A program made the translations under genes and the position numbers. A DNA stretch of 64,000 bases from Mobula hypostoma. Its lineage: Eukaryota. The stretch covers positions 96,412,001-96,476,000 of the forward strand of contig NC_086097.1 of assembly GCF_963921235.1 (NCBI RefSeq), written 5' to 3'. Numbering within the stretch: position 1 is the first letter of the stretch; every line of letters starts with the position of its first letter. Shown in pieces: positions 26,414-61,797 of the stretch. The notes below the pieces were generated by a model, which did not search any database, was not told the DNA's origin, and saw only the letters and a program-made list of their open reading frames with translations.

Positions 26414-26449
26414 GGTCGATGTTTCGGGCTGGAACCCTTCATCAGGACT
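26414..26449 (-). ncRNA. Minimal type-I hammerhead ribozyme motif
   Basis: Minus strand AGTC-CTGATGA-A-GGGT-TCCA-GCCC-GAAA-CA-TC-GACC. Confidence 0.78.
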
Positions 26450-28296
26450 GAAGAGGGAAGGGGCAGAGGCCCTATAAAGAAGGTGGGGGGAGGGTGGGAA
26501 GGTTCCAGGTGAAAAACCAGTAAGGGGAAAGATAATAGGGTGGGGGAGGGGAGGCAGGGAGGTGATAGGCAGGAAAGGTGAAGAAAGAATAGGGGAAAAC
26601 ACAATGGGTAGTAGAAGGAGGCAGAACCATGAGGGAGGTGATAGGCAGCTGGGGGAGGGGGCAGAATGAAATAGGGATAGGGGAAGGGAGGGGGAGGGAA
26701 TTACCGGAAGTTGGAGAATTCTATGTTCATACCAAGGGGCTGGAGACTACCTAGACGGTATATGAGGTGTTGCTCCTCCGACCTGGGTTTAGCCTCATCA
26801 TGGCAGTAGAGGAGGCCATGTATGGACATATCTGAATGGGAGTGGGAAGCAGAGTTGAGGTGGGTGGCTACTGGGAGATCCTGTCTGTTTTGGCGGACGG
26901 AGTGGAGGTGCTTGACGAAGCGGTCCCCCAATCTGCATCAGGTTTCACTGATGTAGAGGAGGCTGCACCGGGAGCACCGGATGCAATAGATGACCCCAAC
27001 AGACTCACGAGTGAAGTGTTGCCTCACTTGGGAGGACTGTTTGGGACCCTGAATGGTGGACAAACTTCCACTCAGCCCTCAAATTCACTTGGGTCTACCT
27101 CGGACACTTCGCTCCCTTTCTCGATCTCTCAGTCTCCATCTCTGGAGACAGACTGTCCACTGATATCTTCTACAAGCCCACTAATTCTCATAACTACCTC
27201 AACTATACCTCTTCCCACCCTGCCACATGCAAAAATGCCATTCCCTATTCCCAGTTCCTCCGTCTCCGCTGCATCTGCTCCGAGGATGAGGTTTTCTGTT
27301 CCAGGACATCTCAAATGTCCTCTTTCTTTAAGGATCATGGTTTCCCTTCTGCTGTCATCAATGATGTCCTCACACGCATCTCCTCCATTTCCCGCACTTC
27401 GGCTCTCACCCCATCCTCCCGCCACAACAGGGACAGAGTTCCCCTTGTCCTCACCTACCGCCCCACCAGCCTCCGGATCCAGCACATTATCCTCCGCAAC
27501 TTCCGCCACCTTCAACAGGACCCCACCACTAAGCACATCTTTCCCTCTCCACCCCTCTCCGCCTTCTGCAGGGATCGGTCCCTCCGTGACTCCCTGGTCC
27601 ACACGTCCCTCCCCACGGATCTCCCACCTGGCACTTATCCCTGTAAGCACAAGTGCTGCACCTCCTCTCTTGCCACCATTCAGGGCCCCAAATAGTCTTT
27701 CCAAGTGAGGCAACACTTCACTTGTGAGTCTGTTAGGGTCATCTATTGCATCCGGTGCTCCCGGTGCAGCCTCCTCTACATCGGTGAGACCCGACGCAGA
27801 TTGGGGGACCGCTTCGTTGTGCACCTCCGCTCCGTCCGCCAAAACAGACAGGATCTCCCAGTAGCCACCCACTTCAACTCTGCTCCCCTCTCCCATTCAG
27901 ATATGTCCATACCTGGCCTCCTCTACTGCCATGATGAGGCTAAACTCAGGTTGGAGCAGCAACACCTCATATACCGTCTAGGTAGTCTCCAGCCCCTTGG
28001 TATGAACATAGAATTCTCCAACTTCTGGTAATTCCCTTCCCCTCCCTTCCCCTATCCCTATGTCACTTTGCCCCCCTCCCCCAGCTGCCTATCACCTCCC
28101 TCATGGTTCCGCCTCCTTCTACTACCCATTGTGTTTCTCCTATTCTTTCTTCACCTTTCCTGCCTATCACCTCCCTGCCTCCCCTCCCCCACCCCTTTGC
28201 CTTTCCCTTTACTGGTTTTTCACCTGGAACCTACCAGCCTTCTCCTTCCCACCCTCCCCCCACCTTCTTTATAGGGCCTCTGCCCCTTCCCTCTTC

Positions 28297-28332
28297 AGTC
28301 CTGACGAAGGGTTCCGGTCCGAAATGTCGACC
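28297..28332 (+). ncRNA. Minimal type-I hammerhead ribozyme motif
   Basis: AGTC-CTGACGA-A-GGGT-TCCG-GTCC-GAAA-TG-TC-GACC. Confidence 0.75.
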
Positions 28333-28626
28333 GATCTTTTCCACGGATGCTGCCTGACCTGCTGAGTTCCTCCAGCATGTTGTGAGTGTCATCTTCATAA
28401 GGCCACGCCTCAGAAAGGCGGCATCCATCATTAAGACTCCCAGCACCCAAGACATGCCCTCTTCCCATTGCTACTATCAGGGAGGTAGTACAAGAGCCTA
28501 AACACTCAATGTTTTAGGAATAGATTCTTCCCATCTGCTATCAGATTCCTGAATGGATAGTGAATGCGTGTCCACTACCTCACTACTTTGTTCATTTTTC
28601 TTGTTCTTTTTGTCACTATATATTTA

Positions 28627-30116: not shown

Positions 30117-30776
30117 TTTATGCCCGGCTTAATCAAGAATCTATCAACCTCTGCCTTAGATGTACCCAATGGCCTCCATAGCCGCCTGTGGCAACGAATT
30201 CCACAGATTCACCACTCACTGCCTAAAGAAATTCCTCCTCATCTCTGTTTTAAAGGACATCCCTGAGGCTCTGTCCTAAGTCTTAGACTTCCACTCCCCC
30301 CACCCCCATAGGAAACATCCTCTCCACATCTACTCTACTAAGGCTATTCAACATTTGATAGGTTTCAATAAGGTCACTCCTCATTCTTCTAAATTCCAGT
30401 GAGTTGAGGCCCAGAGGCATCTAACACTCCTCATATGTCACCCCTTAAAACACAGAGTCATTTTCATGAACCTCCTTTGAACCCTCTCCAGAGTCAGCAG
30501 ATCCTTTTTTAGACAAGGGGTCCAAAACTGCTCACAATACTCCAAGTGAAGCCTCACCATGCTTCATACAGCCTCAACATTACATCCTTGCTTTTATATT
30601 CTAGTCCTCTCGAAATGAATGCTAACATCGCATTTGTCTTCCTCACCAGCGACTCAACCTGCATATCAACCTTTAGGGAATCCTGCACAAAGACTCCCAA
30701 ATCTCTTTATACCTCAGATTTTTAAATTTTATTTCCATTTATAAAATAGTCTACACTTTTATTTCTTCGACTAAAG

Positions 30777-33700
30777 GCACGGATGTCACGGACCGATTGC
30801 AGGGCATCCTCAAGAGTGAAGGTGAACAGCCAGAAGTGGTAGTGCATGCCGACACAAATGATGTCAGGAAGAGGAGGAAAGAAATTCTGCAGCGTGACTT
30901 CAGAGAACTCGGAAGAAAGCTGAAAAGCAGAACCTCCAGGGTGGTTATCTCCGGTTTGCTTCCAGTTCCTCGTGCTGGTGAGGGCAGGAACAGAGAGATA
31001 GGGGATCTGAATGTGTGGCTGAGGAGCTGGTGCGGGAAGCAGGGATTTACATTCTTAGACCACTGGGATCTGTTTTGGGGCAAGGATGAATTGTACAGAA
31101 GGGATGGATTGCACCTTAACAGGCGGGGGACCAGCATTCTAGCAGGCAGATTTGCCACTGCTACACGGGTATGTTTAGATTAAGTAGTGGGGGGGGGGGC
31201 GGAGGAGAGGATATATAAGGATGGAGTTAAAGGAAAAGAGAGAATAAGGAAAGTTAAGAAAAACAACAGAATTAACGGGGCAGAAAGCTCAGGAAGGGAT
31301 CGGAGAGTATGGCAAAGTGCAATAGGAATCAATGTGAAAGGTGAGGGGAGTAATGGATTAAAAGTATTATATATGAATGCACGAAGTATAAGAAATAAAG
31401 TGGATGAGCTTGAGGCTCAGTTGGAAATTAGCAAGTATGATGTTGTAGGAATAACAGAAACATGGCTGCAAGAGGACCAGGGCTGGGAAATGAATATTCA
31501 AGGTATACATCCTATCGAAAGGACAGACAGGTGGGCAGAGGGGGTGGGGTGGTTCTGTTGGTGAGGAATGAAATTCAGTTCCTTGCGAGGGGCGACATAG
31601 AATGAGGAGATGTAGAGTCAGTATGGATGGAACTGAGAAATTGCAAGGGCAAAAAGACCCTAATGGGAGTTACCTACAGGCCCCCAAACAGTAGCCTGGA
31701 TATAGGGTGCAAGTTGAATCAAGAGTTAAAATTGGCATGTCACAAAGGTAATGCTACGGTTGTTATGGGGGATTTCAACATGCAGGTAGACTGGGAAAAT
31801 CAGATTGGTACTGGACCCCAAGAAGGGGATTTTGTGGAATGTCTCCGAGATGGATTCTTAGAGCAGCTTGTACTGGAACCTACCAGGGAGAAGGTAATTC
31901 TGGATTTAGTGTTGTATGATGAACCGGATTTGATAAGGGAACTCGAGGTAAAGGAGCCATTAGGAGGTAGTGACCATAATATGATAAGTTTTAAACTACA
32001 ATTTGAGAAGGAGAAGGGAAAATCGGAAGTGTCAGTATTGCAGTTGAACAAAGGGGACAATGGAGCCATGAGGGAGGAGCTGGCTAAAGTTGACTGGAAA
32101 GATACCCTAGCAGGGATGACAGTGGAACAACAATAGCAGGTATTTCTGGGAATAATACAGAAGGTGCAGGATCAGTTCATTCCAAAGAGGAAGAAAGATT
32201 CTAAGGGGAGTAAGGGGCAACCATGGCTGACAAGGGAAGTCAAGGATAGTATAAAAATAAAAGAGAAGAAGTATAACATAGCAAAGATGAGCAGGAAGCC
32301 AGAGGATTGGGAAACTTTTGAAGAGCAACAGAGGATAACTAAAAAGGCAATATGGAGAGAAAAGATGAGATACAAAGGCAAGCTAGCCAAGAATATAAAA
32401 GCTTCTTTAGGTATGTGAAGAGGAAAAAATTAGTTAAGACCAAAGTTGGGCCCTTGAAGACAGAAATGGGTGAATTTATTACGGGGAACAAGGAAATGGC
32501 AGACAAGTTGAACAGGTACTTTGGATCTGTCTTCACTAGGGAAGATACAAACAATCTCCCAGATGTAATAGTGGCCGGAGGACCTAGGGTAACGGAGGAA
32601 CTGAAGGAATTTCACATTAGGCAGAAAATGGTGTTGGATAGACTGATGGAACTGAAGGCTGATAAATCCCCAGGGTACTTAAGGAGGTGGCTCTAGAAAT
32701 CGTGGACGCATTGGTAATTATTTTCCAATGTTCTATAGATTCTGGATCAGTTACTGAGGACTGGAGGGTAGCTAATGTTATCCCACTTTTTCAGAAAGGA
32801 GGGAGAGAGAAAACAGGCTATTATAGACCAGTTAGCCTGACATCAGTGGTGGGGAAGATGCTGGAATCAATTATAAAGGATGAAATAGCGGCATATTTTC
32901 GATAGCAGTAGCAGGATAGGTCCGAGTCAGCATGGATTTACGAAGGGGAAACCATGCTTGACTAATCTTCTGGAATTTTTTGAGGATGTAACTATGAAAA
33001 TGGACAAGGGAGAGCCAGTGGATGTAGTGTACCTGGACTTTCAGAAAGCCTTTGATAAGGTCCCACATGGGAAATTAGTGGGCAAAATTAGAGCACATGG
33101 CATTGAGGGTAGGGTACTGACATGGATCATAAATTGGTTGGCAGACAGGAAACAAAGAGTAGGGATTAACGGGTCCCTTTCAGAATGGCAGGCGGTGACT
33201 AATGGGGTACTGCAAGGCTTGGAGCCGGGACCGCAGCTCTTTACAATAGACATTAATGATTTAGATGAAGCGACTAAAAGTAACATTAGCAAATTTGCAG
33301 ATGACACAAAGCTGGGTGGCAGTGTGAAATGTGCGGAAGATGTTGAGATAATGCAGGATGACTTGGACAGGTTGGGTGAGTGGGCAGAAGCATGGCAGAT
33401 GCAGTTTAATGTGGATAAATGTGAGGTTATCCACTTTGGTGGCAAGAACAGGAAGGCAGATTACTACTTGAATGGTGTCAAATTAGGAAAAGAGAAAGTA
33501 CAACGAGATCTTGATGTCCTTGTTCATCAGTCACTGAGAGTAAGCATGCAGGTACAGCAGGCAATGAAGAAGGCTAATGGCATGTTGGCCTTCATAACAA
33601 GGGGAGTTGAGTATAGGAGCAAAGAGGTCCTTCTGCAGTTGTACAGGGCCCTGGTGAGACCACACCTGGAGTATTGTGTACAGTTTTGGTCTCCAAATTT

Positions 33701-34191
33701 GAGGAAGGACATTCTTGCTATTGAGGGAGTGCAGCGGAGGTTCACGAGGTTAATTCCCAGGATGATGGGACTGTCATATGTTGAAAGATTGGAGCGTCTG
33801 GGCTTGTATACACTGGAATTTAGAAGGATGAGAGGGGATCTGACTGAAACATGTAAGATTATTAAGGGATTGGACACGCTAGAGGCAGGAAACATGTTCC
33901 CGATGTTGGGGGAGTCCAGAACCAGAGGCCACAGTTTGAGAATTGTGAACTCCATTTAGAATGGAGTTGAGGAAAAACTTTTTCACCCAGAGAGTTGTGG
34001 ATCTATGGAATGCTCTGCCTCAAAAGGCAGTGGAGGCCAATTCTCTGGATACTTTCAAGAAAGAGTTAGATAGAGCTCTTAATGATAGTGGAGTCAAGGG
34101 ATATGGGGAGAAGGCAGGTATGGGGTACTGATTGTGGATGATCAGCCATGATCACAGTGAATGGCCTACTCCTGCACCTATTGTCTATTGT
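30777..34191 (+). mobile_element. CR1 LINE, fairly young, 5'-truncated in ORF1
   Basis: ORF1 SGNH esterase (HADTND, DGLHLN); ORF2 YMNARS, ITETW, MGDFN, GSDHN, YRPVSLTS, YLDFQKAFDKV, KFADDTK, RPHLEYCVQFW; (CTATTGT)2 tail; TSD CTAAAG (30771-30776, 34192-34197). Confidence 0.96.
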
Positions 34192-39530: not shown

Positions 39531-42500
39531 GCATTGAAATTTGACCAAGTATAACAAGCTTAGTTAGCAAGTTAAAGGATTAAAGACATGGTAAGAGTAG
39601 TAGATTGAAAGTAATGGAAAGAGGGATACAAGCAAGAAGTCCAAGGATTGAATTCTGGACTTAGAGATCTGGTATTGATATTAATGGAAGAACCATTAAT
39701 GTCCAGGATAATTAAAATTCCAGAATTGGAGTGTCTTATGGCTAAATAAGTTTTCAGGCATAAACATAGAAAGACATTGGAGGAATGCAAAAACAAAGAT
39801 GGGAAGATGATTCGCCAGGGATCAATGTCGGTCAACAAACACAAAGTGTGATTGGTAGTAGACATATTGTGGCCAGTAAAACCTGAAAGGTCCAAAGTTT
39901 AAGGGAAATACAGGAACTGTCAAGAACCAAAGCAGCAAGGTCTGAGAACAGAAAACAAACTGAGGTATTATACATTTAAATTAATGCCAATTACTTGACT
40001 GAAAAAGCACTATATAAAAACAGGTCACATTTACACCAGTGGTAATCTAGGAACAGCAATCAAGTTGTATGATATAGTTCCAAGACTACAAAAATGTTAT
40101 TGGAAAAAAGCAGAAGAAATTTATTACGAACAGGTGTAAAGAACTCTAAAAATCAAACACGTGCAGCATAATTAATCTCTAAATACTGTAGTTTTGCACT
40201 AGCCTGGGAAATCTGTACATAGAAAAATGCTAATCATAATTCAGTAATTAATAATTTAAACTAAATGTATTGATATAGAATCAAAATAGTACAATAAAAA
40301 ATTGTGCAGTAATTGTTGTGGAAACAAAGCAGTTTACAAATATTTCCTTTATCCTTTAAATTTTCATTCACTTGCAGCTCCTCTGTCCTATTGTTGAAGT
40401 AACAGCTATCTGAAAGAAAATAAGAGAGCTTGCAAAAACTACTATCTGACAGCTTAATACATCAATTACAGAAAAGATAACATACAATTTACAAAACAGA
40501 CTTCTTGTTCATGATAAAATAGAAAGCAAATTGCTCTTCATATAGCTTAGGATTCATGTATAGCAATATGCAGTACTATGCCTGGTTTAGATAATCAATA
40601 CACAAGACATACATGCTAGTACAAACAGATGCAAAAGAACAGAAGAGTTGCAAGAAAGACTAGATCAACTCAAACTTTCAGTAATCAAAATGAATAAACA
40701 AGAATAGATGAAGAATGCACTGAAGGTATGATGTCTGAAATCATTTAAGCAGAAATATAATGAAACATGAAGGGACCTTAAATATGTTTTTTTTCCAATT
40801 ACTCTTGCTCATCTATTCTGTAATCAACTGTCCCTTCCAACTTTTTATGAATGGTTACAAATTAATATTACATATTCTCAAATTGCACCATTGAAAGGAG
40901 CTTCAATATGTCTGCCTTTTGAGGGTATAGATGGTTTTCAGCCATTTTTCTAAATGAGATGTATCAGCCAGGAAAAATGCCAACATCTTGTACTCCTTGC
41001 AAAGTTAGCATTAGCGTAGAACATCCTGTGATATATACTGTACTGTATATTCTCTTGCAAATTAAAGAAAATAATTTCATGATAACAAGATAGATAAAAA
41101 TGAACAAGCACTTTCAGTTTAAATTAGCTCATCTAAGAAGAGACATCACTCCATCACTGCAGTCAAATGCTTTCTAAGTGATTAAAGGCATCCCAGTAGC
41201 CAGTGGGAGATGGAAAAACAGATTTATAGATGGATTATGGAAAGATGTAAAAGCAACAGTATTTTGTCAATGCATTCAAGAGAGTTTCTCAAAACAGTAC
41301 AAGGATAGTCCAATGAAAGTATGGACCGTACTGTATCTTATTTTGGGATATGACCCTGGCTGGAAGATTGGCCTTACAGTGTGAGAGAATTTTGGAAACA
41401 GTGATCACAACAAAATTTTAAGATAGTTATGAATAAGGATAAGACTGGATCTTCTGGCAGGAAAAACTAAAATTGGTGAATGGCAATTTATGGCATTTAT
41501 AGACAGGAGCTGGGAGCAGTGGTTATCAGACTAGTCCAAATTGACCTGTGGGAGTTGTTTAAAGTCTAGAATTCAGGATCAGCATGTTTCAGTAAGGAGA
41601 AAGGACAATGAAATCTGGGATAATTAGAGTGAATGTGAATTTAGTCAAAAAAAAAACATATAAAAAGTTGAGAAAGCTCTAATCAGGGTCCTTGAGGAAC
41701 ATAAAGGTAGCAGTAAAGAACCCAAGCAGAAGAATGGAATGCCAAAAGGAGACATGAACCATTATTAGCAAGCAGAATTAAAGAAAATCCCAAGGCATTT
41801 TATACTTACATTAAAAGCAATATTATAATGAGGGAGAGTAAAGAACCACTGAAGGATAATTGAGGACATACGATATTAGATAAAAGATCTTTCAGATATA
41901 CAGTATGTATAAAAAGTAAGAGAGGCAAAAGTAGACATAGGACTACTGGAAAATGGTACTCGAAAAGTGGTAATGAGGAACAAAGAAATAACAGATGCAC
42001 TGAGTAAATATTTGTATCAATCTTCACTCCAGAGGACATTAGCAGCATGCCAGATATTTAAGAGAGTCAGTTATGAGTGTAGTTGCTATTATTTGGGAGA
42101 GGGTGCTTGTGAAGCCAAAAGGTCTAAAAGACACTTAAGTCACTTAGACCAGACAGAGTATATCCTATGGTTCAGAAAGATGTAGCTGAAGACCGTGGAG
42201 GCATTGGTAGTGATATTTCAAGAATCATTAGAGTCAGGAATGGATTTTAGAGGACTGAAAAATTACAAAAGGCTCTCCACTTTTTAAGAAGGGAGGGAGA
42301 CAAAAGAAATGAAATTATAAATCTGGCTAACCAGCCTCAGTGGTTGGTGAGATTTTAGAGTCCATTAATAAGTTTGAGGTTTCGGAGTACTAAGAAGGAT
42401 ATAATGAGATGGGCCCAAGTCAACATGACTACACCTGACGAATCTGTTGGAATTCTATGGAAGTAACAAGCAGATGAAACAAAGGAGACTCAGTGGTTGT

Positions 42501-43086
42501 TGTCTACAAGGATTTTCAAGCAGTTTTTAACAAGATGTTTCACACAAGTCTGCTGAACAAGATAGAAGCCCATTGAATTACAGGAAAGGTACTAGCATGG
42601 ATAGAAGTTTGGCTGATCAGCAGAGGCAAGGAGTGGGAATAAAGGGAAACTTCTCTGGTTGGCTGTCTGTGACTTTTAGTGTTCCATAGTGGTTGGTGTT
42701 GAATCCACTATTTTTCATATTCTGTGTTAATGATCTAGATGACGGAACTGATGGCTTTGTGGTCAAGTTTACAGATGATACAAAGATAGGTGGCGAGGAA
42801 GAGACTGCTGAGAAAGCAAGGAGTCTGCAGAAGGGCTTGGACGGGTAGGGAGAATGGCAAAGTGGTGGCAGATAAAATAGGGAAGTGGATAGTCATGAAC
42901 TTTAAAATAAGGTTTAAAGGCTTAGACAATATTCTAAATGGGGAGAGAATTCAGAAATCAGAGATGCAAAGTGACTTGGGAATCCTGGTGTATGACTCCC
43001 TTAAGGTTAACTTGCAAGTTGAATTGGTAGTAAAGATAGAAGGCAAATACATTCCATAAAATATTAGCATTCATTTTGTGAGGACT

Positions 43087-44291
43087 TGTTGCACTGGGGC
43101 GTAGGGAGTGGACCCAAGTGCAGGACACAGGCACGGAGAGCGGGTTAGGAAACATCTGAAATTTGACAGAATTTCCGAAGCACACAATGTGACTGATGAA
43201 TTGCCTAAGAGCCAGACATCCAAAAGGGCAGATGCAATAAGCTGTATTGCAGGTATAACACGCAGGTGTCTTCCTCTAGATGAACACATGCTGGCCGAGC
43301 GCAGACTTGAACGTTGACTTGGACTCAGGGCCTGGACTTGGACTTGACTGGGACTCGGAGCCTGGACTTGGACTTGACTTGGACACCGAGCCTGGACTTG
43401 GACTTGACTTGGACACCGAGCCTGGACTTGGACTTGGCTGGGACTCAGGGCCTGGACTTGGACTTGACTGGGACTCGGAGCCTGGACTTGGACTTGACTT
43501 GGACACCGAGCCTGGACTTGGACTTGGCTGGGACTCGGAGCCTGGACTTGGACTTGACTTGGACACCGAGCCTGGACTTGGACTTGGACTTGGCCACCGA
43601 GCGACCAAACCAAAGGACAGACAATTCATATCGCGGCTCAGAGCAGCGGCAAACGGCCTGCAGTACTCAGCCAGACACAAGATGACAAAAACAAACAACA
43701 GACAATTCGTATCGCGGCTCGGAGCAGCGGCAAACAGCCAGCAATACTCAGCCGGACACAATTCGACAAAAACAAACAACGACAGACAATTCATATCGCA
43801 GCTTGGAGCAGCGGCAAACGCCTGCAATACTCAGCTGGACACAAGATGACAAAAACAAACAATAACAGACAATTCATATCGCGACTCCGGGTAGCACATG
43901 AAGCGGCAAACGACCGGCAAAACTCAGCTGGATGGCAGGCTCTCAACTTGACCCAGGAACTGCGGACAGCAGGCTCTCGACTCAACCCAGGAACTGCGGA
44001 CGGCAGGCTCTTGACTGGACTTATTCTCCAGGAACTGCGGACAGCAGGCTCTCGACTGGACTCATTCTCCAGGAACTGCGGACGCCAGGCTCTCGACTGG
44101 ACTCATTCTCGGTGGCCCAGAACAAGCATAGCCGCACTGCTGAGGTGACGAACCAGCAACGAGTAGATGTAAGCTGGAGTTTTTATACTGCCAGTTCCAA
44201 TGAGGATCAGGTGCCCTAATCAAGGAGCCCAGTGGAACACGGGGAAAAGGAAATTAGCTGAAATGAGGAGTCAACGGACCGGACCATGACA
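43087..44291 (-). mobile_element. Solo LTR (Gypsy-like) with internal tandem arrays
   Basis: TGT...ACA termini, 5-bp TSD GGACT (43082-43086, 44292-44296), minus-strand TATAAAA at ~44181-44187; host CR1 resumes after it. Confidence 0.88.
43316..44110. repeat. Three adjacent minisatellites: 30-bp x ~9, 81-84-bp x ~4, 32-39-bp x ~5
   Basis: Periodicity read directly (units at 43321+30n; ACAGACAATTC at 43617, 43698, 43782, 43865). Confidence 0.93.
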
Positions 44292-46277
44292 GGACTAGAT
44301 TATAACAGGAAATATCTAATGCTGAAATTTCATAAGGGATTGGTCAGACCATATCTAGAGTAATGTGAACTGTTTTGGGCTCATATCTACAAGGATGTCC
44401 TGGCATTGGAGAGGGTCTAGAGGAGGTTTGTGAGAATGATCATGGGAATGAAAAAGTTAACATATGAGAAGTTTTTAACACTTCTGGGTCAAAGTTTTGA
44501 AGGATGAAGGGGCATCATTTTGAAACCTTCTGAATAATGAAAGACCTGAAGTGGACATTGAGAGGATGTTTCCAGTAGCGGGACAGCCTAGGACAAGAGA
44601 ACACAGCCTCTAAATATAAGGACATCAGTTTAGAACAATGATGAGGAAGAATTTCTTTAGCTAGTGGAGGTGAATCTGTGGAACTCATTGCCATAGATGG
44701 CTGTGAAGGCCAAATTATTGGGTATATTTAAATTGGAGGTTGATAGATACTTGATTAGTAACAGCATCAAAGATTAGGTGATGGAGGCACAAAAGTGGGC
44801 TTGAGAGGGAAAATAAATCAGCCATGGTTGAATAGAAGAGGAGAATCAATGAGTTGTATGGTCTAGTTCTATTCCTATGTCTCATGGTCTTATGCTTGGA
44901 TTCAGAGCATATGGGCGAAGTACTTCATGTTAATGTTCAACAAGGAGAAAGAAATAGAGGATAATCAGATTAGTGTCGGTATGCTAAATGTGCTAGGGCA
45001 TTCAAATCAAGAAGGAGGTGGTGCTGAGTGTTTTGAAGAGCAGCAAGACGTAAAAGTCCTTGAGGCCTCATGGTATACATTCCAGTACATTGAAAAAGGC
45101 AAGAGAAGAGACTGCTCGGGCTTTGATGAAGATCGTTGCATCTTCACTAGAGTGGGCAATGGGTTTTTTTGTTGTTCAAGGAGAGTAAAAAGGATGATCC
45201 AGTAAATTGTAGGGAGACTAGTCTTACACCAATGGCAGAGAAGCTATTGGAGAGGATTCTCAGGGATAGAATTTATGTGCATTTGGGGGGGAGAAAGGCC
45301 TGATTAGAGACAGTCAGCATTGTTTTGTGCCAAACAGGTCACACCTTACAAACCTGATTATTTTGATGTAACAACGGTGAATGATGAGGATAAGGCAGTG
45401 GACGTTGTCTCTTGAATTTTAGTAAGGCACTTGACAGGGTTCCTCATGGTAGGCTGATCCAGAAAGTTAAAATACATGGAATCCAAGGTGACTTGGTAGC
45501 TTGCCCATTGAACACAGAAGGTAGTGGCAGAAATGTATTATTTTCACTCCAAGTTCATTACCAGTGATGTTCTGTGGGAATCTGTGGGAATCAGTGTTGC
45601 GACCTCTGTTGTTTGTGATTATATGACTGGGGGAGCAGCGGAGAGTATAGAGGGATATAACAGAATATAGCTCACTTACAAATATGGACAGAAAGTATAC
45701 AATTAATGATAGGGCCCTTAAGTGTGCGTGTCACCAAAGTAAAAATGAAATGAACACGTTTTCCCAGGCTCCCGTGTTTTTCTTTTGACTAGTTTTAGAG
45801 TTTGAAAACATAACAGTGTTGATGAGACAAGTGTTGAAATGAACCCAAGACAACTAAAGCACTGAAGCACAGCGAGGTGGTAATTTAAAAAAAGCACAGC
45901 TCCTGTTTTTTTTGGAAGGAGAGAAAAACATTCAAATTTTTAAATAAGGTAGAAAATGAACAAAATTCATGGGTTCATAAACAGTGTGCAGCGGGTGATA
46001 ATAATCAAATAAAGTAACAAAACAGAAATGGCCAACTACATTGGAAAGACAGATGCATTTGGTTGCACAATAGATAACTGGATCATGTATACTGAATGAA
46101 TTGAGCAATATTTTGAAACAAATGAAATAGCCAATGGAAAGTGAGTGCCAATTTTGTTGAGCACAATTAGTGGAAGAGCAAACAACAGGAATTCTGCAGA
46201 TGCTGGAAATTCAAGCCACACACATAAAAGTTGCTGGTGAACGCAGCAGGCCAAGCAGCATCTATAGGAAGAGGCGC

Positions 46278-46313
46278 AGTCGACGTTTCAGGCCGAGACC
46301 CTTCGTCAGGACT
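46278..46313 (-). ncRNA. Minimal type-I hammerhead ribozyme motif
   Basis: Minus strand AGTC-CTGACGA-A-GGGT-CTCG-GCCT-GAAA-CG-TC-GACT. Confidence 0.85.
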
Positions 46314-46608
46314 AACTGAAGGAAGAGTGAGTAAGGGATTTGAAAGCTGGAGGGGGAGGGGGAGATGCAAAATGATAGGAGAAGACAGGAGGGGGAAGGA
46401 TAGAGCCGAGAGCTGGACAGGTGATAGGCAAAAGGGGATACGAGAGGATCATGGGGCAGGAGGTCCGGGAAGAAAGACAAGGGGGGGGGTGACCCAGAGG
46501 ATGGGCAAGAGGTATATTCAGAGGGACAGAGGGAGAAAAAGGAGAGTGAGAGAAAGAATGTGTGCATAAAAATGAGTAACAGATGAGGTACGAGGGGGAG
46601 GTGGGGCC

Positions 46609-47683
46609 TTAGCGGAAGTTAGAGAAGTCGATGTTCATGCCATCAGGTTGGAGGCTACCCAGACGGAATATAAGGTGTTGTTCCTCCAACCTGAGTATGG
46701 CTTCATCTTTACAGTAGAGGAGGCCGTGGATAGACATGTCAGAATGGGAATGGGATGTGGAATTAAAATGTGTGGCCACTGGGAGATCCTGCTTTCTCTG
46801 GCGGACAGAGCGTAGATGTTCAGCAAAGCGGTCTCCCAGTCTGCGTCGGGTCTCACCAATATATAAAAGGCCACATCGGGAGCACCGGACGCAGTATATC
46901 ACCCCAGTCGACTCACAGGTGAAGTGATGCCTCACCTGGAAGGACTGTTTGGGGCCCTGAATGGTGGTAAGGGAGGAAGTGTAAGGGCATGTGTAGCACT
47001 TGTTCCGCTTACACGGATAAGTGCCAGGAGGGAGATCAGTGGGGAGGGATGGGGGGGACGAATGGACAAGGGAGTTGTGTAGGGAGCGATCCCTGCGGAA
47101 TGCAGAGAGAGGGGGGGAGGGAAAGATGTGCTTAGTGGTGGGATCCCGTTGGAGGTGGCGGAAGTTACGGAGAATAATATGTTGGACCCGGAGGCTGGTG
47201 GGGTGGTAGGTGAGGACCAGGGGAACCCTATTCCTAGTGGGGTGGTGGGAGGATGGAGTGAGAGCAGATGTACGTGAAATGGGGGAGATGCGTTTAAGAG
47301 CAGAGTTGATAGTGGAGGAAGGGAAGCCCCTTTCTTTAAAAAATGAAGACATCTCCCTCGTCCTAGAATGAAAAGCCTCATCCTGAGAGCAGATGCGGCG
47401 GAGACGGAGGAATTGCGAGAAGGGGATGGCGTTTTTGCAAGAGACAGGGTGAGAAGAGGAATAGTCCAGATAGCTGTGAAAGTCAGTAGGCTTATAGTAG
47501 ACATCAGTGGATAAGCTGTCTCCAGAGACAGAGACAGAAAGATCTAGAAAGGGGAGGGAGGTGTCGGAAATGGACCAGGTAAACTTGAGGGCAGGGTGAA
47601 AGTTGGAGGCAAAGTTAATAAAGTCAACGAGTTCTGCATGCGTGCAGGAAGCAGCGCCAATGCAGTCGTCGATGTAGCGAAGG
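46609..47683 (-). pseudogene. Uninterrupted C-terminal part of Penelope ORF (RT RYIDD, thumb, Cys linker, GIY-YIG endonuclease)
   Basis: LRYIDD, LPFLD, YYKPT, HP..CK..IPFSQ.LR..RIC, CKRNKCYTC, VIYC..YIGET; no stop over ~357 codons. Confidence 0.93.
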
Positions 47684-49953
47684 TAGTGGAAGAGCATACA
47701 GTTTGATTGCTCCAACCAAACCAGCTGAAATGAGCTTTGCTGATATCATGAGTGTAATGCAGCAAAATTTATAACTTAAACTATTGTTGATTGTAGAACG
47801 CTTTAGGTTTCATAAGCGGAATCAAAAGGCGGGGGAGTCCATTTCAGTTTACATGGCTGAATTGAAGAAATAGTCTGAGCATTGCCAGTTCAGTGACGGC
47901 CTTAATAACACACTGAGAGATTGTTTAGTTTGTGGAATCTTATAAGAAGGCATTCAAAAATGGCTCCTAAATGAAGCACAACTTATATTGAAAAGAGCAG
48001 TTGAAGTTGCTGTAGCAATGGAAACATCAGTCAGAGATACAAGTGGATTGCAGTCAGGAACAAAATTGGATGTGAACAAAATTGCAAAGTCTAAACAGAA
48101 ACCTGCCTGGCCAAACAAATTGCGTTACCATCATGGCAGGGGTTCACATACATCAGACCAATGCAGGTTTAAAAGGCAAAACTTGCAGAAAATGCAAAAA
48201 AGTAGGTTACATACTAAGATCATGTTGGGCAGACAAAATAAATTGATTGCACAGGGAAGAGCAAAAGATAAAAAAATCAAGTTGCAGTATCAAAAAGAAC
48301 ACTAATTTGCATGCTGTTGATGAACAATCTGACAATGATGAGAATGACACAGGACTGACTAGTCTTGAGATTTACAATGTGAAAACTAACAAATAAGCAA
48401 TATCACTTAAACCAGGAGTGAACTGCAAATTAATTAAAATGGAATTGGACACTGGCTCGGCTGTTTTTATTATTCCACAAAATGAGCTTGAATGGCATTT
48501 CAAAGCCTACAGATGTCCATTAAGAACTTATAGTGGAGAAAAGACAAGTCCTGTGGGAATGGCATTTGTAACAGTGAAGTACAACAACCAACAAGCCACA
48601 TTCGGTGTGTATGCTGTAAAAAAAAGATGGCCAGCATTGTGGGGTCATGATTGACTGAGGCAACTACAACTTGACTGGAGATCCACCCACCATTTGTATG
48701 CCACATCCCCTGCAACAGAGTCAACTGAAGGTGAATTAAGAAAAGTACGGGATGCTGACACATCAGTGCTTAAGGATGGAATTGGAAAACTCAGATGTAT
48801 CAAGGGTAAAGTAGTCTTAAAGGAAAATACCACAATCAAGTTTTACAAAGCCTGTCTGGTTCCTTATACCTTCTGTGATAAAGTAGTCAGTGAGCTAGAT
48901 CACATGGAAGCTGAAGTAATTCTTTCCAAGGTTGAGTGGTGCAACCAAGAAGGATGGGTCTGTCAGGATGTGTGGTTATTCTAAGGTCACCATCAACCCA
49001 GTACTGAAAGTAGATTAATACTTCCTGCTCAGTCTAGAGGATATCTTTGCAAACCTTTCTGGAGAAAAACACTTCAGCAAAGTGGACTTAGCTGTGGCCC
49101 ACCTACAGACAAAGATGGAAGAAGGGCCAAAGTGCTTCTCACCATAAATACTCACAAAAAGTTTTATCACTAAAATAGGCTTATTTTTGGAGAAGCATTT
49201 CCACCTGCACTCTGACAGAAAGCAGTGGACAAGGTGCTTGTGCAAAGCTGCCCATGCACTCAGTGTAACCTGGGTGACATATTGTGAGGATGACAAGGAA
49301 CATCTCCAAAATCTCAAGACAGCGTTAAAAAGATTTGAAGATTATGGGCTCACAGCATGACACAACAAGTATGAATTCTTTAAACTGAGCATCATTTACT
49401 GTGGTCACACTATTGATGCACAAGAATTACACAAGAGTGCTGAGAAAATTCAAGTAGTGGTGAATGCCAAAGGACATGTCACAGTTGGGGTCCTTTTTAT
49501 GATTTGTCAATTACTATAACATGTTTCTGCCAAAACTGGCTACTGTGCTCTACCCCTTGAACTCATTACTACCAATCGGGAAGAAATGGCAATGGACAAA
49601 ACAGTGTGAAGTAGCTTTCCAAAGGACAAAGGAAATGGCAAAATCAGGCACTGTACTCACACATTATGATACACATTGATCAGTGAAGCTTGCCTGTGAT
49701 GTCTTGCATTTATGGTATAGGTGCAGTCATGTCACATGCTGAGTGATGAAAGTGAATGCACCACAGCCTTTGTATCACATTCACTTACTGCTGCACAGAA
49801 AAATTGCACACAGTTTGACAAAGAGGCCTTGAATCTGGTTTGGAGTCTGAAACACAAACAACAGGAATTCTGCAGATGCTGGAAATTCAAGCAACACATA
49901 TCAAAGTTGCTGGTGAACGCAGCAGGCCAGGCAGCATCTCTAGGAAGAGGTAC

Positions 49954-49989
49954 AGTCGACGTTTCAGGCCGAGACCCTTCGTCAGGACT
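49954..49989 (-). ncRNA. Minimal type-I hammerhead ribozyme motif
   Basis: Minus strand AGTC-CTGACGA-A-GGGT-CTCG-GCCT-GAAA-CG-TC-GACT. Confidence 0.85.
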
Positions 49990-50069
49990 AACTGAAGGAA
50001 GAGTTAGTAAGAGATTGGTAACTGAAGGAAGAATTAGTAAGAGATCTCTTACTAACTCTTCCTTCAGTT

Positions 50070-50105
50070 AGTCCTGACGAAGGGTCTCGGCCTGAAATGT
50101 CGACT
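50070..50105 (+). ncRNA. Minimal type-I hammerhead ribozyme motif
   Basis: AGTC-CTGACGA-A-GGGT-CTCG-GCCT-GAAA-TG-TC-GACT. Confidence 0.8.
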
Positions 50106-50300
50106 GTACCTCTTCCTAGAGATGCTGCCTGGCCTGCTGCGTTCACCAGCAACTTTGATGTGTGTTGCTTGGGGTCTAACACATTTCAACTTGTACTTGT
50201 ACGGGAGAGAGTTTACCCTCATTACTGATCATCAACTATTAATGTCCATTTTCAATCCACAGAAGGGTGGTCCATTTAAAAGCAGCAGCACGATTGCAGA

Positions 50301-50380
50301 CAACACACATCAAAGTTGCTGGTGAACGCAGCAGGCCCGGCAGCATCTATAGGAAGAGGTACAGTCGACGTTTCGGGCTG
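50301..50380 (-). mobile_element. ~80-bp Penelope terminal fragment, truncated inside the hammerhead
   Basis: Matches 49892-49970; splits Gypsy ARLQ/RWAL codons. Confidence 0.85.
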
Positions 50381-52181
50381 AATGGGCTCTGTTTCTTGGT
50401 GGACACAATTACAAGGTCGAATTCATGAGGATGATGACTCGTGGAAATGCCGATGAATTGTCCTATACATCCTTGCAAACAGAAGTACCTGAAAATTTTA
50501 CAAGAAAAGGACATTCCTCTCAATGTATTCTCCCTAATGCAAATCAGAAGTCTTCCTATTATGGCAGAGATGATCCAAAGTAAAACCTGAAAAGACTCCA
50601 TACTGTCTCAGGTCCACATGACCACCCAAAGGGCTGAAATGTGCAGCAGAAATACCAGTTCCACCATTTTTGCCAGCACCAGGATGAACTTTCTCTTGAT
50701 GGAGGTTGCCTCATGTGGGGATTGAGAGTTGTTGTACCATCCCTGCTGAGAGCTGAAGTGTTGGAGGAGCTACATGCCAGTCATCTAGGCATGGCTAAAA
50801 ACTTTGTCCGATGGCCTGGGATAGATCAGCAGGAACAGCTTCCCATGAAGTGTTTGGATGCCAACACTTGCAGAAGATGCCACGAGCAGCTCAACTCCAT
50901 CTGTGGGAATGGCCTGCATTGCCCTGGCAAGGATTCATGTGAATCTTGCCAGACCATTCACGGGCATGAATTTCTTGATAGTAGTGGATTCAGCTACGGT
51001 CAGAAGTATTTTCACTACAGCCTCGCAGAATGTTGATATGTTGAGAAGCCTCATCTCAAGGACTGGTGTTCCAGAACACTTAGTCAGTGACAATGGACTA
51101 AAGTTTGTTGCGGAATATCTTCAGTCATTCCTGAATGGAGTAAGACATATCACATCTGCACTGTACCACCCAGCTATAAATGGTGTGGCAGAAAGGTTTC
51201 TCCAGAGTCTAAAGAACACACGCCACGGCGAGCAATGTCAGATGAACATGCTATATTGACACTGAATCAGAAAATCGCCAATTTCTTCCTTACATATCGC
51301 AATGCTCCACACTCTATATCCAAAAACTCACCAGCTATGCTGTTCCTGGGATGTCCTTTGCACTCACGTTTGGATCTCCTCAAACCCAATCTCAGAAGTA
51401 TGCAGGACAAACAGCTGAGACAAACTGAAGACTGCTCAAAAAAGCGGATTCGATGTTTCACTCCTGGACAAGAATTCCTGATGAGGGACTACAGAGGTAA
51501 TCAAAAGTGGGTACTTGGAAAGATTAAGGGACAGAACTGGACCACTTTCCTACACAGTGGAGATTGTGTCTGAGGTCATCTGGAGACAACATATTGATCA
51601 GTGAGGAAAGCAGAATCAATTGTTAGAGAATAAAGGTGTCCAGAGCTTTCAGAACCACTTCCAGTAGTCCCAGAGTCAACTCCTACAACCTCCATTGGGG
51701 CGGTCCCAGAACCTGAGATTGTTTCACAGCCATGTCTCAGCTGCTAAGCAAAGTGACACCCACTGGTCAGAAAAGACATTATCCAATAAGAGTAAGAAAT
51801 CCTTCAGAGCTATTATATCTTTAGGCCTGAATGGGACAATTTAAAATTTACTATGCTGTGGATGTATATATGACTAGAGAACAATACACTTCATATTTGA
51901 GTTGAGATGCATTTTCTATTGAGTTGGCGTTTATAGCTAAGCAGAGAGGTGTATTGTGTATTTAATATTTCATATTTGAGTAATATTGGAAATATATTGC
52001 TTGATTGATCATTCTTTTACTTAAATCATTACAGATAGTATGTAAAAGTATGTGAATAAGATATGTCATTATGCCACCATGTCATAAGTGCATGCGTCAG
52101 TAAAGTAAAAACAAAGTAGACCTGTTTTCCTAGCCTCCCATATTTTTCTTTCGATCAATTTTCGAGTTATAAAACATAACA

Positions 52182-52490
52182 GTCAGAATCTTTTTCCTAT
52201 TATAGAAAGATCAAGTACTAGAAGACAAGCATTTAAGCTGAGGTGGGTAAGTTTAAAGGAGATGTTAGGGACATTTTTAAAAAAATATACAGTAGTGGTT
52301 GCTTGGTATGGGCTACCAGGGTAGTGCAAGCAGATCAAACAGCAGCATTTGAGACTGTTAGATAAACATGTGAATCTGCAGGGAATGGAGGGGTATGGAT
52401 CACGTTTAAACATAAGCGATTTGGTATACTTCATGTTTGGTGCAGAAATTGTAGGCCAAAGGGCCTGTTCCTATGCTCTGCTGTTCTATT
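52182..52490 (+). mobile_element. CR1 3' end
   Basis: GGCCAAAGGGCCTGTTCCTATGCTCTGCTGTTCTAT tail. Confidence 0.75.
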
Positions 52491-52879
52491 CTGCAGTCTG
52501 ACATTCACTCACACTCTACGTAGAAATTAGTTCTCTGTTATGGATTTCACAATCTGCCAGTCTGGTTTCAATCTGCTATCACTAAAACCTGATAGATTGT
52601 AGACAGGGCGAAATCTGTATCATGTGGCAGCTCGCCCACGCAGCAAGCGAACCGGCTCCAGCAGTCGCTGGCGAGCCTGCAACCAGTGGCAACTGAAAGG
52701 GCTCTGAGAACAAGGCAGACCTCAGCCCGGAAGCCGACGTCACTTCCGCCCCGCAAAGGGCGGGGGTTGCTGGGAGCGGGTTACTTAAGCGCGCACCGAT
52801 TCAAACAGTAAACAGTTCAACCAGACCCTGCTCGACTCAGTGTGTTGCTTTCGCTTGTCATGTATCAGCGCGACTACAT

Positions 52880-52893
52880 TGGTGACCCCGACG
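52880..52893 (+). promoter_or_regulatory. Primer-binding site complementary to tRNA-Trp 3' end
   Basis: TGGTGACCCCGACG right after the 5' LTR; matches the start of the known tRNA-Trp PBS TGGTGACCCCGACGTGAT. Confidence 0.85.
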
Positions 52894-53291
52894 GTCCAAC
52901 GGCATTTGGATCCAACATAAACGACTCGGCTCTGCAGAATGCAGTTTCCCTTAAACTGCCAACCTTCTGGACCACTCAACTCCTGGTCTGGTTTGAGCAA
53001 GTGGAGGCACAGTTCCAGGTCAGGCAAATTGTCTCAGACGCCACCAGGTATTACTATGTGGTGGGTGCCCTCGACCAAGAGACAGCAGGCCGCATTATTG
53101 ACTTTCTGCATCAGCCCCTGGCAACAGACAGGTACGAGGCACTCAAGGCCCTGTTAATCCGCACATTTGGCCTCTCCCGCTGCAAACGGCCGCGTGGTTA
53201 CTGCATATGGACCAGCCTGGGCAGCCACGTGCCATCAGCCCTGATGAGCGACGTGCTAGCACTGGCAGATGGCCATAAACCTTGCCTGCTG

Positions 53292-53910
53292 TTTCTTTTC
53301 TTTCATTTGCAATCTTTTTATTAATTTCAGCATCATAAACATTACAGAAAATACAAAGGTAGATACAGAGCAATTGGGATTACATTATTGATAATTAGTT
53401 TATACAAGTATAAACTATGGGAGCCCAAGCACGGGAGAATGAACTCTGGGCGCCCTCCCAAGTCTATGGTCAACACGTTCCTAGAAGGCAGCGGCGCGGC
53501 TAATGGAGATGAACTGAACACACTGATGAGGGAGAGGGAAAAGTGGAGAGTCCGTCATCGTACCCGACAATGGCCTCTAGGCCTGAGTCGACGTAGTAGT
53601 AGTAGTAGTAGTAGTATAAACTGAATTGACACATCATTAATGAGCTTCCCAAAATCTCAAAAAGTATAAATATAATACAGAAAAATATAAAGAGAAAATA
53701 TAAAAAATCATGAAAAAAGAAACAAAAATATATACCCCAAAAGAAATAAAAGTCTAAACCAACTAGAAAAAAAACTAAAGGGGAAAAAAAAGAAAAAGAA
53801 TGGGCTATTATGATACCTTAGATAAGAGCATTAGTGTCGTTAACTCTGCTCCTCTCCTCTTGTATTGAAGTAACAAAATAGAATTGGAACTGGCACAACT
53901 CCTCAGAATC
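53292..53910 (-). mobile_element. L1 3' UTR fragment inside the Gypsy element
   Basis: Minus strand GAGGAGCAGAGTTAACGACACTAATG..AGCCCA matches ~5039-5092; ends AATAAAAAGATTG..(GAAA)n like 5351. Confidence 0.85.
53417..53612 (+). mobile_element. RTE-like LINE 3' end with (TAG)n tail
   Basis: WEPKHGRMNSGRP..W C-terminus; 10-bp TSD AGTATAAACT (53407-53416, 53613-53622). Confidence 0.82.
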
Positions 53911-55399
53911 CAGCTCCACCGAACGACTGCTTGCCACCCGCAGTCAACGGCCTGGTGGAATGTTTCCACAGGCACTTGAAGTCAACCCTGATGGCATGCC
54001 TCCGAGCGCCAGACTGGGTGGATGAACTCCCCTGGGTGCTGCTTGGCATCCACACGGCACCCAAGGACCTGGCCGCATCTTTGGCCGAACTTGTTCACAG
54101 TGCTCCGCTGACAGCTCCTGGTGAGCTTGTGCCAGCATCCCGTAGCCAGGAGGACACACCTGCTAGGGTCCTAACTAAACTCCAGGAGCGGCTTGGAACA
54201 CTTGCTCCAGTTCTGACGTCCCACCACAGAACAACACCCTCTTTTGTGCCCAGGGACCTACAACAGAACGAGTATGTTTTCATTCGTCGAGGCGCGCACA
54301 GACCACCCCTGCAGTGACCATACGAGGGACCCTACAAGGTGGTGTACCATAATGGAGCGACCTGCGTTCTCAACATCGGTGGTAATGAAGAGACTTTTAC
54401 CATTGACCGTCTCAAACCGGCGCATCTAGACCTTGAATGCCCAGTTGTGGTACCACCCCCATGATGTTAAGGCTGGCCACCTAAAAGAACTGAGAGTGTG
54501 CAGGCTGTGGACTCTGCACCTCCTATCGCCGGTTCTGCGGGGGGGGGGGGTCATGTGGCGGCTCGCTCAAGCAGCAAGCGAACCGGCTCCAGCAGTCGCC
54601 GGCGAGCCCGCAGCCAACGGCAACCGAGAGGGCTTTGAGAACAGGGCAGACCTCGGCCTGGAAGCCGACGTCGCTTCCGCCCCGCAAAGGGCAGGGGTTG
54701 CTGGGAGCAGGTTATTTAAGCGCACACTGATTCAAACAGTAAACGGTTCAACCAGACCCTGCTCGACAGCGTGTTGCCTTCGCTCATCATGCATCAGCGC
54801 AACTACAATATGACAAAATCCAACTGTTTGGGTCTTTGTGACATCCAGAATATGACAATTGAGTAGAAAGACACAAAGTCACAAATTGTAAATGGATGCC
54901 TGCTGGCCAAGCTCAGAACTGGAAAAAGAGTTTCAAAAGGCCAAAGATTCAATTGTATCACATGACTTATTTCCATGACTAGCCAACTGTATCCAAATTC
55001 AAAAAGCATCAACAATATTTCTCTTAATACATACAAGAAGCAGTCTTCCAAATACTATATCATTCAGATCCTCTGATTCTGGTGTTCTATGCATTTTAAT
55101 TCCTACATCCCCATTACCATTCTGAGATATCAGTCCACGGCCTCCTCTTCAGCCACACAGGCTGGAGTAGCAGCAGCTCATATTCCAATGACAGAGTACA
55201 GCTTTACTGTTACCATTGAAATGGTTGTATTATCTATCTCAAAGCCTCATCTATCTTGTCAATATTTCCATGTATTCTTCACTTTTTGAAGAGCTTTCAG
55301 AAACAGTCAAAAATGTTTTTTAAAAGTTTAAACCTACTATCATTGGTTAATTTGGTATAACATCTCAATTAGTATTTTGCATTTCTTATAGACCATTCC

Positions 55400-59520: not shown

Positions 59521-59872
59521 TTCGGAGACTGCCTGTTCAATTTAAACAGGAGTGAATGTTACTCAAATAAACATGGTGCTTGTTAACTTATTGGTGTCTC
59601 AACTTCAATGTATTGCATAGATATCCTTTCCTAACTGTACTTGTGTCCTGTATGTTAGTTAGTGTTAATTGTTTTTTTTTAACTTACATTTTTAAGTCAG
59701 AAATATCTGGGTTATCCAAATGATAAAATTCCATGATGTTGGAATGTAATTTTTGAGTGACTTTAACTGCTGAAATAATGCTAATAATTTTGTGCCTGTT
59801 ATACAATTTAAACAGGAGTTGAATGCTATTCAACTAAACAAATTGTTTGTTAACTTATGAGTGCCTCAACTT

Positions 59873-61797
59873 AAGACCTTAAGACATAGGAGCAGGATTA
59901 GGCCATTCAGCCCAAAGAGTCCGGTCTTCTATTTCATCATGGCTGATCCCGAATCCCATTCTATCCTATACACCTGCCCTCTCACCATATCCCTTGATGC
60001 CCTGACCAATCAGGAATCTATCAACTTCCACTTTAAACATATCCATGTACTTGGCCTCCACCACAGTCTATGGCAGAGCATTCCACAGATTCACTTCTCA
60101 TTGGCTTAAAAAATTCCTCCTTACTTCTGTTCTAAAAGGTCGCCCCTCAATTTTGAGGCCGTGCCCTCAAGTTCTCGATGCCCCCAACAGAGGGAACATC
60201 CTCTCCACATCCATCTTGTCTAATACTTTCAACATCCGGTAGGTTTCAATGAGATTCCTCCTCCCCCCGCCCCACCAGCATTCTACTAAATTCCAGTGCA
60301 TACAGGCCCGAAGCTGCCAAATGCTCCTCATATGTTGCCCCCTTCATTCCTGGAATCATCCTCGTGAACCTCCTCTAGGTTCTCTCCAATGACAATGCAT
60401 CCTTTCAGAGATAAGGGGCCCAAAACTGTTGGCAATACTCCATGCGGCCTGACTAGTGTCTTATAAAGCTTCATCATTATCTCCTTGTTTTTAATGTGCT
60501 ATTCCCCTTGAAATAAAAGCCAACATTGCATTTGCCTTCTTTACCTGAGACTCAACCTGTGAATTAACCTTCTGGGAATCTTGCAAGGCGACTCCCAAGT
60601 CCCTTTGCACCTCTGATGTTTGAATTTTCTGTCCATTTAGATGATAGCATGCACTATTGTCCCTTTTACCAAAGTGCATTATCATACGTTTCCCAACACT
60701 GTATTCCATCTGCCACCTTTTTGCCCATTCTTCCAATTTGTTTAGTACCTGCTACAATTGCATTGCTTCCTCAGCACTACCTACCCATCCACAAACTTTG
60801 CCATAAAGCCATCAATTCCACTATCTAAATCATTGACAAACAATGTGAAAAGTGGCTGTCCCAATGCTGACCCCTGAGGAACACCACTAGTCACTGGCCC
60901 CCTTTATGCTCACTCACTGCCTTCTGCCTGTCAGCCATTCCTCTATCCATGCCAGTATCTTTCCTGTAACACCATAGGATTTTATCTTGTTAAGCAGCCT
61001 CATATGAGGCACTTTATCAAATGCCTTTTGAGAATCTAAGTAAATGACATCCATTGCCTCTCCTTTGTCCATCCTCTTGTTACTTCCTCAAAGAATTCTG
61101 ATAGATTCCTCAGGCAAGATTTCCCCTTACAGAAACCATGCTGACTTTGACTTACTTTATCATTGGTCTTCAGAAATCCTAAAACCTCATTCTTAATAAT
61201 AGATTCCAACACTTTCCTAACCACTGAGGTTAGGCTGGCTGTCCTATAATATGCTCTTTTGTTTTCCTCCCTTCTCAAAGAATGGAGTGACTTTTGCAAA
61301 TTTTCAGTACACTGGGACCATGCCAGAATCAAGTGATTCTTGAAAGATCATGACCAATGCATCTGTTATCTCTTCAGCAACCTCTTTCAGGACTCTGGGA
61401 TCTAGTCCATCTGGTCCAGGTGTCTTATCCACCTTAAGACCTTTCAGTTTGCCTAACGCTTTTCCCTTTGTAATAGCAATGGCACTCACTCCTACTCCCT
61501 GACACTCATGGACCTCTGGCATACTACTAGTGTCTTCCACAGTGAAGACTGAAACAAAGTACTTATTATGTTCATCTGCCATTTCTTTGACCCCTCTACT
61601 TCACCGGCATCATTTTCCAGTGGTTCAATATCAACATTCACCTCTGTTTTATTCTTTATATAACTGAAAAAACTTTTAGTGTCCTGCTTTATATTATCGG
61701 CTAGCTTGCTCTCATATTTCATCTTTGCCCTCATAACTTTTTTTTAGTTGCCTTTTGTTAGATTTTAAAAGTTTTTCAATCATCCAACTTCCCACTC
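59873..61797 (-). mobile_element. CR1 LINE ORF2 fragments and 3' end
   Basis: PGPDGLDPRVLKE, YRTASLTS, QHGFCKGKSC, KKANAMLAFI; tail at ~59873. Confidence 0.9.

Follow-up and report, generated by a model that had tools for sequence, protein, structure and literature searches.

The locus at 49855-50171 raises the question of how a stretch of DNA that folds back on itself almost perfectly, with a hammerhead motif on each strand, came to lie inside an old retrotransposon, and whether it is a one-off product or a member of a family moving in this form. The window, meaning the whole 64-kb stretch of DNA that was analysed, is mostly transposon debris, and the fold-back has broken into a decayed Gypsy pol at its RNase H-like part (Table 1). 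The repeat suggests a cartilaginous fish as the organism. In this host, Pfam gave RT_RNaseH_2 just left of the insertion (E 4e-6) and rve downstream (E 1e-3), both below the curated cut-offs. One decayed Gypsy (~45700-52200) has apparently taken three separate insertions of Penelope-like elements (PLEs), at 46179, 49855 and 50301; how far it reaches beyond 46179 on the left is judged from a pair of short repeats (45719-45817 and 52085-52183). Elsewhere in the window, 52812-54317 is occupied by another LTR-retrotransposon-like remnant, distinct from the Gypsy host, in which gag- and integrase-like frames were recognised by eye; ~43280-43600 is a short-period tandem array with low-complexity open frames on both strands, and LINE-like remnants with endonuclease and RT-like frames, whose family labels are tentative, lie at 30677-33959, 41881-43051 and 59872-61678, at 1471-4439, and at 25252-26279.

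The preliminary description had drawn a spacer-less palindrome with nearly perfect arms of ~125 bp, a 30-bp tandem duplication as a bulge and an extension of ~35 nt on the left arm only, and this geometry was recovered throughout. A repeat search of the window returned the inverted arms 49888-50015 and 50044-50171 (128 nt, 98% complementary), and global alignment of the arms paired 127 positions with two mismatches (49899/50160 and 49961/50098), both transitions. The centre, between 50044 and 50045, has zero spacer, falls on a self-complementary AT dinucleotide and gives a single match inside the 64-kb window when up to three mismatches are allowed. The duplication forming the bulge was found at 49989-50045 (period 30, 1.9 copies, 96%), and the extension measures 33 nt (49855-49887), or possibly 38 nt (from 49850). 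The statement that there is no coding sequence needs rewording, because ATG frames of 39-111 codons do overlap the fold-back, crossing the arms in either sense and in some cases reaching the flanking Gypsy remnant, but none of them reads as a gene of the element; the pre-insertion part of the 111-codon frame, the only part of it scanned, is RNase H-like Gypsy. The predicted RNA fold has an energy of -278 kcal/mol (z = -36; 0 of 100 shuffles equally stable), from which it follows, as had been expected, that a read-through transcript would form a long dsRNA hairpin. An Rfam scan of the fold-back gave no microRNA family at gathering score, and a microRNA precursor was rejected, since mir-577 (40.3 against 100 bits) and mir-4788 (31.5 against 91) match in hairpin shape only.

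Table 1. Features of the fold-back, its host and the related insertions in the window.
Feature	Position	Strand	Basis or remark
Host: gag-pol of a Gypsy-type LTR retrotransposon in advanced decay, with numerous stops and frameshifts	47700..52000 (limits approximate)	+	Pfam, three-frame translation
Sister PLE copy (reference), 5′-truncated, open frame with terminal GIY-YIG, tail, TSD-like repeat	46179..47683	-	BLAST, Pfam
Probable TSD, left copy, 9 nt	49840..49848 (to 49854 if element starts at 49855)	+	8/9 identical to 50169-50177
PLE tail (33 nt if counted from 49855, perhaps 38 nt, counted from 49850)	49850..49887	-	left arm only
Left arm, 3′ part of pseudo-LTR with hammerhead	49888..50016	-	matches family until 50016
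Intact minimal type I hammerhead with stem I, core and stem II; helix III a palindromic ACGU (dimer required)	49953..49990	-	motif anatomy
Two non-family G's and re-copied 26-nt stretch (30-bp tandem duplication)	50017..50044	+	1 change from first copy
Spacer-less centre	50044..50045		AT dinucleotide; sole window match
Right arm, inverted pseudo-LTR end without tail	50045..50171	+	125/127 complementary to left arm
Minimal type I hammerhead, helix III with CpG-type change (AUGU)	50069..50106	+	motif anatomy, dimer model
Probable TSD, right copy	50169..50177	+	first 3 nt common to element end
Window fold-back	6822-8438		reference coordinates: tail arm to 1225, tail-less arm to 431
Window fold-back	15203-17037		reference coordinates: tail arm to 832, tail-less arm to 1171
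Window fold-back	26319-28389		reference coordinates: tail arm to 789, tail-less arm to 1426
Window fold-back under study	49855-50171		reference coordinates: tail arm to ~162, tail-less arm to 161

The identity of the element is given by its relatives in the window. By BLAST, the left arm is 92.6% identical over 175 nt to an ORF-bearing PLE copy at 46179, 3.7 kb away, and 91.4% identical to the PLE copy at 6822. Because copy 46179, the closest of the long ones, continues into a GIY-YIG frame, the fold-back is a PLE pseudo-LTR (pLTR) end. The frame of this sister copy has 378 codons with the GIY-YIG domain at its end (Pfam E 2e-4, just under the cut-off, with a second window copy just over it at E 1e-4), and the TSD-like repeat around the copy matches at 16 of 17 positions, a few element bases included. 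In the Atlas, the frame matched eukaryotic clusters at 0.95-0.96; GIY-YIG is present in 15-21% of the members of the top three, and RVT_1 in 13% of one matched cluster. For a PLE-type reverse transcriptase there was no Pfam RT match in the window copies, which are 5′-truncated, and a PDB search with the sister ORF returned nothing meaningful, RT included (one match, E 0.87); a YIDD motif, presumably that of the RT, is visible in the sister frame. The frames 46609-47745 and 7252-8076 carry a Neptune/Nematis-type linker before the C-terminal GIY-YIG, which in the sister frame is CX4CxxC upstream of the domain, accompanied by a CxxC within the nuclease. The marks described for Neptune/Nematis are a CX2-5CxxC linker and a CCHH-type C-terminal GIY-YIG (PMC8557442). 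Judged from its sequence, the fold-back is the pLTR 3′ end of a GIY-YIG PLE of the Neptune/Nematis type, a designation under which Neptune and Nematis are not separated. The subfamily of 46179 and 6822 was also active recently. Its young copies 46179-47683 and 6822-8044 lie 39 kb from each other, share 98.6% identity across 1,225 nt and have open GIY-YIG frames; one of the two has an inverted arm, the other none.

The fold-back shares its form with other insertions of its family. A BLAST search of the window with the left arm gave 14 segments, which correspond to 10 insertions including the fold-back itself, and four of these 10 are fold-backs (Table 1). In all four the tail is confined to one arm and each has its own junction; the tail-less arm ends inside the tail tip by 33, 34, 43 and 38 nt, and in two of the four it is the longer arm. 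The two with the longer tail-less arm, 15203-17037 and 26319-28389, are older fold-backs, with arms 83.6% and 93.7% identical. Of the remaining six insertions, five consist of one arm that extends into the tail, and the sixth, 50301-50381, of one arm without it. This solo tail-less PLE end of 81 nt lies 130 bp from the fold-back, within the same Gypsy remnant, shows no TSD and has five differences from the fold-back's arm; it is a separate insertion, begun at the inner start site only, and it is absent from other Gypsy copies (contig joint 50269>50382).

The ends of the fold-back were compared with all contigs of four sequencing runs (two of organism A and two of organism B, from 23 runs on record). 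Between 80,287 and 132,337 contigs per run matched a 1.5-kb stretch, the depth being centred on the arms; a sum of contig depths does not give a copy number and was not read as one. Among the 24 rows listed, loose ends peaked at 49855/49856 in all four runs (113-163 contigs) and at 50168-50171 (113-157 contigs), and the flanks at both peaks are AT-rich and mutually unrelated (agreement 0.37-0.41). Since loose ends pile up at both ends of the fold-back, both are family-wide insertion boundaries. Behind 50016 the loose ends continue the family (183-312 contigs per run), which places the departure of the fold-back from its family at 50017. The tail is common to the copies 6822, 46179 and 61924 and is absent from the right arm. 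The family-wide cDNA start points 49855 (CAAACAAC) and 49888 (CAAGCAAC), 33 nt apart, share a motif of 8-9 nt. When the tail region was folded in five stretches from four copies, nothing significant emerged (z +0.25 to -1.81), and we therefore claim no stem-loop at the start sites.

Among the best 15 joints listed, 13 link antisense to sense arm at other positions, and three are exact mirror points; the intervening letters are given for one of these 13 only, and some of the others may be longer fold-backs of other subfamilies. One joint, 49939>50120, is a recurring spacer-less centre at a mirror point, found in 2-6 contigs per run and in both organisms, and represents still smaller fold-backs that end before the hammerhead. 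In organism B, pieces of the right flank were found with 0 differences, by which the host Gypsy copy looks orthologous. The putative TSD of the fold-back is weak when taken alone but agrees with the sister copies. Its 15-nt version is imperfect (12/15, score 6) and is equalled by 13 of 299 random pairs, the edges being hand-set; among the seven sister copies examined, five have TSD-like repeats with scores of 7-14, where the null reaches 7 at most, and no empty site came to light. Three mismatches in a TSD of 14-15 nt, against 2/127 in the arms, would be an excess (P ~0.001-0.007), but it mostly vanishes if the element starts at 49850, which leaves a 9-nt TSD with eight matches. The contig consensus outside 49855 resembles the window bases 49850-49854, run X2 has a peak at 49850, and the element may start there rather than at 49855. 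With the family identity, the one-arm tail and the shared boundaries, there is good support for the earlier suggestion that Penelope inverted integration, truncated to an extreme degree, produced the fold-back.

The explanation we prefer, with a probability of roughly 0.87, is a single dead-on-arrival insertion of a Neptune/Nematis-type PLE that was truncated so early that only the 3′ end of the pLTR was copied, twice. Within this explanation we infer that twin priming is the likelier mechanism, and snap-back self-priming takes a smaller, though by no means trivial, share. Under twin priming, the PLE protein would make a staggered cut in both target strands, and one 3′ end would prime cDNA at the outer RNA start site to give the tail-bearing arm, the other priming 33-38 nt upstream of it, at the inner site, to give the arm without tail. 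Synthesis of both cDNAs would halt at about one template position, which lies 161-162 nt from the tail tip; the left cDNA would add two non-family G's and re-copy 26 nt (a 30-nt slip), and the cDNA ends would then be joined via a 2-nt AT overlap. [quoted passage not shown] Twin priming is favoured over snap-back because the start points 49855 and 49888 share a motif, and because in two of the four window fold-backs neither arm copies the other, the tail-less arm holding sequence that is missing from the tail arm and the tail arm holding the tail. Against this, later central deletion could also yield unequal arms in older copies. In addition, the meeting of three ends at template position 161-162 seems to exceed what is expected of two independent random truncations, and fits either snap-back or a template whose 5′ end is fixed. 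Junction palindromes have been read as self-priming, the preferred view in PMC3846280, and the main text of PMC11167929 does not itself propose twin priming of inverted pLTRs. In the titles and abstract openings searched, there was nothing on this family or on twin priming for PLE inversions. A more specific version, in which a discrete hammerhead-bearing pLTR RNA of ~165 nt has a fixed 5′ end and a PLE dimer twin-primes on it at motif-sharing start sites, is speculative and rather unlikely; if true, mini fold-backs would be a natural record of the two-ended PLE mechanism and of a class of short non-autonomous PLE transcripts.

The main competitor is a non-autonomous family, in which an RNA of ~165 nt or a source palindrome, with its hammerhead, would be mobilised in trans by the PLE protein and the centre would recur. 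The three coinciding ends are what it would predict, a few other centres do recur (e.g. 49939>50120, 2-6 contigs per run), and such PLE derivatives have been published (PMC8557442; bioRxiv 10.64898/2026.07.22.740005), but we judge it improbable. The centre of the fold-back is unique in the window, the junctions of the other three window fold-backs are unrelated to it, and none of the best 15 joints listed lies at this centre, with the proviso that an identical junction would give no joint. Two metagenome matches to the 20-nt centre have nothing else in common with the fold-back and were set aside as chance palindromes, and the hammerhead would be buried in a hairpin transcript. The retrozyme-like form of this idea, which the preliminary description had offered, is not supported, given the opposite-strand hammerheads, the lack of tandem units and the centre being unique in the window. 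A non-LTR retrozyme was likewise rejected, the only tandem repeat at the fold-back being 30 bp long and hammerhead-free, with the motifs on opposite strands.

Even less probable is that the PLE fold-back was once longer and that its middle later disappeared through slippage and palindrome-driven deletion. The subfamily does have a longer fold-back elsewhere in the window (6822-8438), and long palindromes are prone to central deletion; however, such deletions usually leave a spacer or an asymmetry and not a perfect zero-spacer centre. The arms, moreover, differ at only 2 of 127 positions, which indicates a young copy, and the two G's at the restart mismatch the family continuation. We give almost no weight to an assembly or library fold-back artefact. 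It is true that among the contig pieces listed none bridges the centre, and that none of them spans the right flank junction or, in organism B, either junction. However, the arms are not identical, the host Gypsy sequence continues on either side of the element and shows a TSD-like repeat, and the right end coincides with a family-wide boundary. A 0-difference contig (49711-49876, in X1 and X2, at a depth like that of neighbouring single-copy-like pieces) also joins the flank to the tail, although it reaches only 21 letters past 49855, short of the 31-letter bridging rule, and is possibly the assembly's own sample.

The two hammerheads are regarded here as passengers of the pLTR. The cores lie one per strand, at 49962-49985 (minus) and 50074-50097 (plus), and the hammerhead pattern has nine matches in the window against 0.31 expected, eight of the nine inside PLE copies. 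The claim of an intact hammerhead on each strand is right for the left motif and not for the right one, in which helix III is changed from ACGU to AUGU, so that the dimer helix is weaker; in a constrained dimer model the left hammerhead reaches -10.9 kcal/mol and the right -6.6. The non-catalytic co-fold minima (-30.3 kcal/mol for the left and -26.9 for the right) are far from both modelled catalytic dimer folds, and in the read-through fold the probability of the core being unpaired is at most 0.001 on both strands. Rfam, at E up to 1, matched no hammerhead in the fold-back, so the motifs are called hammerheads on their anatomy as compared with PMC4209133; a search of viral contigs with the family's hammerhead pattern returned 0 loci. 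Metazoan minimal hammerheads require a dimer and cleave weakly (PMC4209133). Self-cleavage of either hammerhead in the fold-back is unlikely in our folding models, because from either side the antisense arm would be transcribed first and pair with the sense core, and because the two ribozymes, lying on opposite strands, never occur together in one RNA. The fold-back probably has no present activity; dsRNA or cruciform effects are possible and are to be taken as putative.

Taken as a single locus, this copy matters little, as one piece of debris from a very abundant retroelement; the fold-back is real, well explained and mostly ordinary. Its value is as evidence on PLE integration, a mechanism that the papers cited here still call unresolved. 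Using the sharp boundaries, the shared start motif and the longer tail-less arms, cases of twin priming and of self-priming could be counted against each other within a single genome. Where introns hold many hairpins of this kind, they could also supply dsRNA, a putative role.

Compared with known systems, most features of the fold-back have precedents: the tail, the inverted pLTR, the junction palindromes and the opposite-strand hammerhead pairs are all already published. Inverted pLTRs of which one bears a 31-bp tail, TSDs of 8-10 bp and abundant inverted-junction palindromes are described in PMC3846280, the legend of Fig. 2 in PMC8557442 draws the arrangement of an inverted truncated pLTR and tail as typical, and the curation guide in PMC8969392 includes the inverted-pLTR arrangement. 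The complex insertions of EN+ PLEs, with an inverted 5′-truncated pLTR and a tail of 30-40 bp (Arkhipova et al. 2013, PMC3846280; Craig et al. 2021, PMC8557442), resemble the fold-back in the head-to-head arms, the one-arm tail, the junction palindrome and the hammerhead in the pLTR, and probably in the short TSD. Unlike typical EN+ PLE insertions, the fold-back is so truncated that it has no ORF and no direct pLTR, although ORF-less examples may exist among the published figures, and it has a re-copied stretch of 30 bp at its centre. The likeness to Neptune/Nematis PLEs in linker and GIY-YIG belongs to the sister copy, whereas the fold-back is without ORF. The hammerheads of the fold-back are like those of the minimal type I found in metazoan PLEs (Cervera and De la Peña 2014, PMC4209133) in their short stem I, their unpaired base before stem II and their palindromic helix III that needs a dimer. 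Pairs on opposite strands, 100-700 bp apart, are already reported there; in the fold-back, by comparison, the cores start 89 nt apart and the right helix III is changed. The in vitro work on PAc (Poseidon, Anolis; Frangieh et al. 2024, PMC11167929) agrees in the two RT starts, the AT-rich targets and the cutting of both strands, although PAc belongs to another clade and the inverted junction is not modelled in the main text of that paper. Non-LTR retrozymes (Li, Clavereau and Pollet 2026), like the fold-back, are ORF-less, PLE-derived and carry a type I hammerhead. Their units follow one another head-to-tail in tandem, and their hammerheads, two or more of them, are consecutive on the same strand (bioRxiv 10.64898/2026.07.22.740005), whereas the fold-back is arranged head-to-head.
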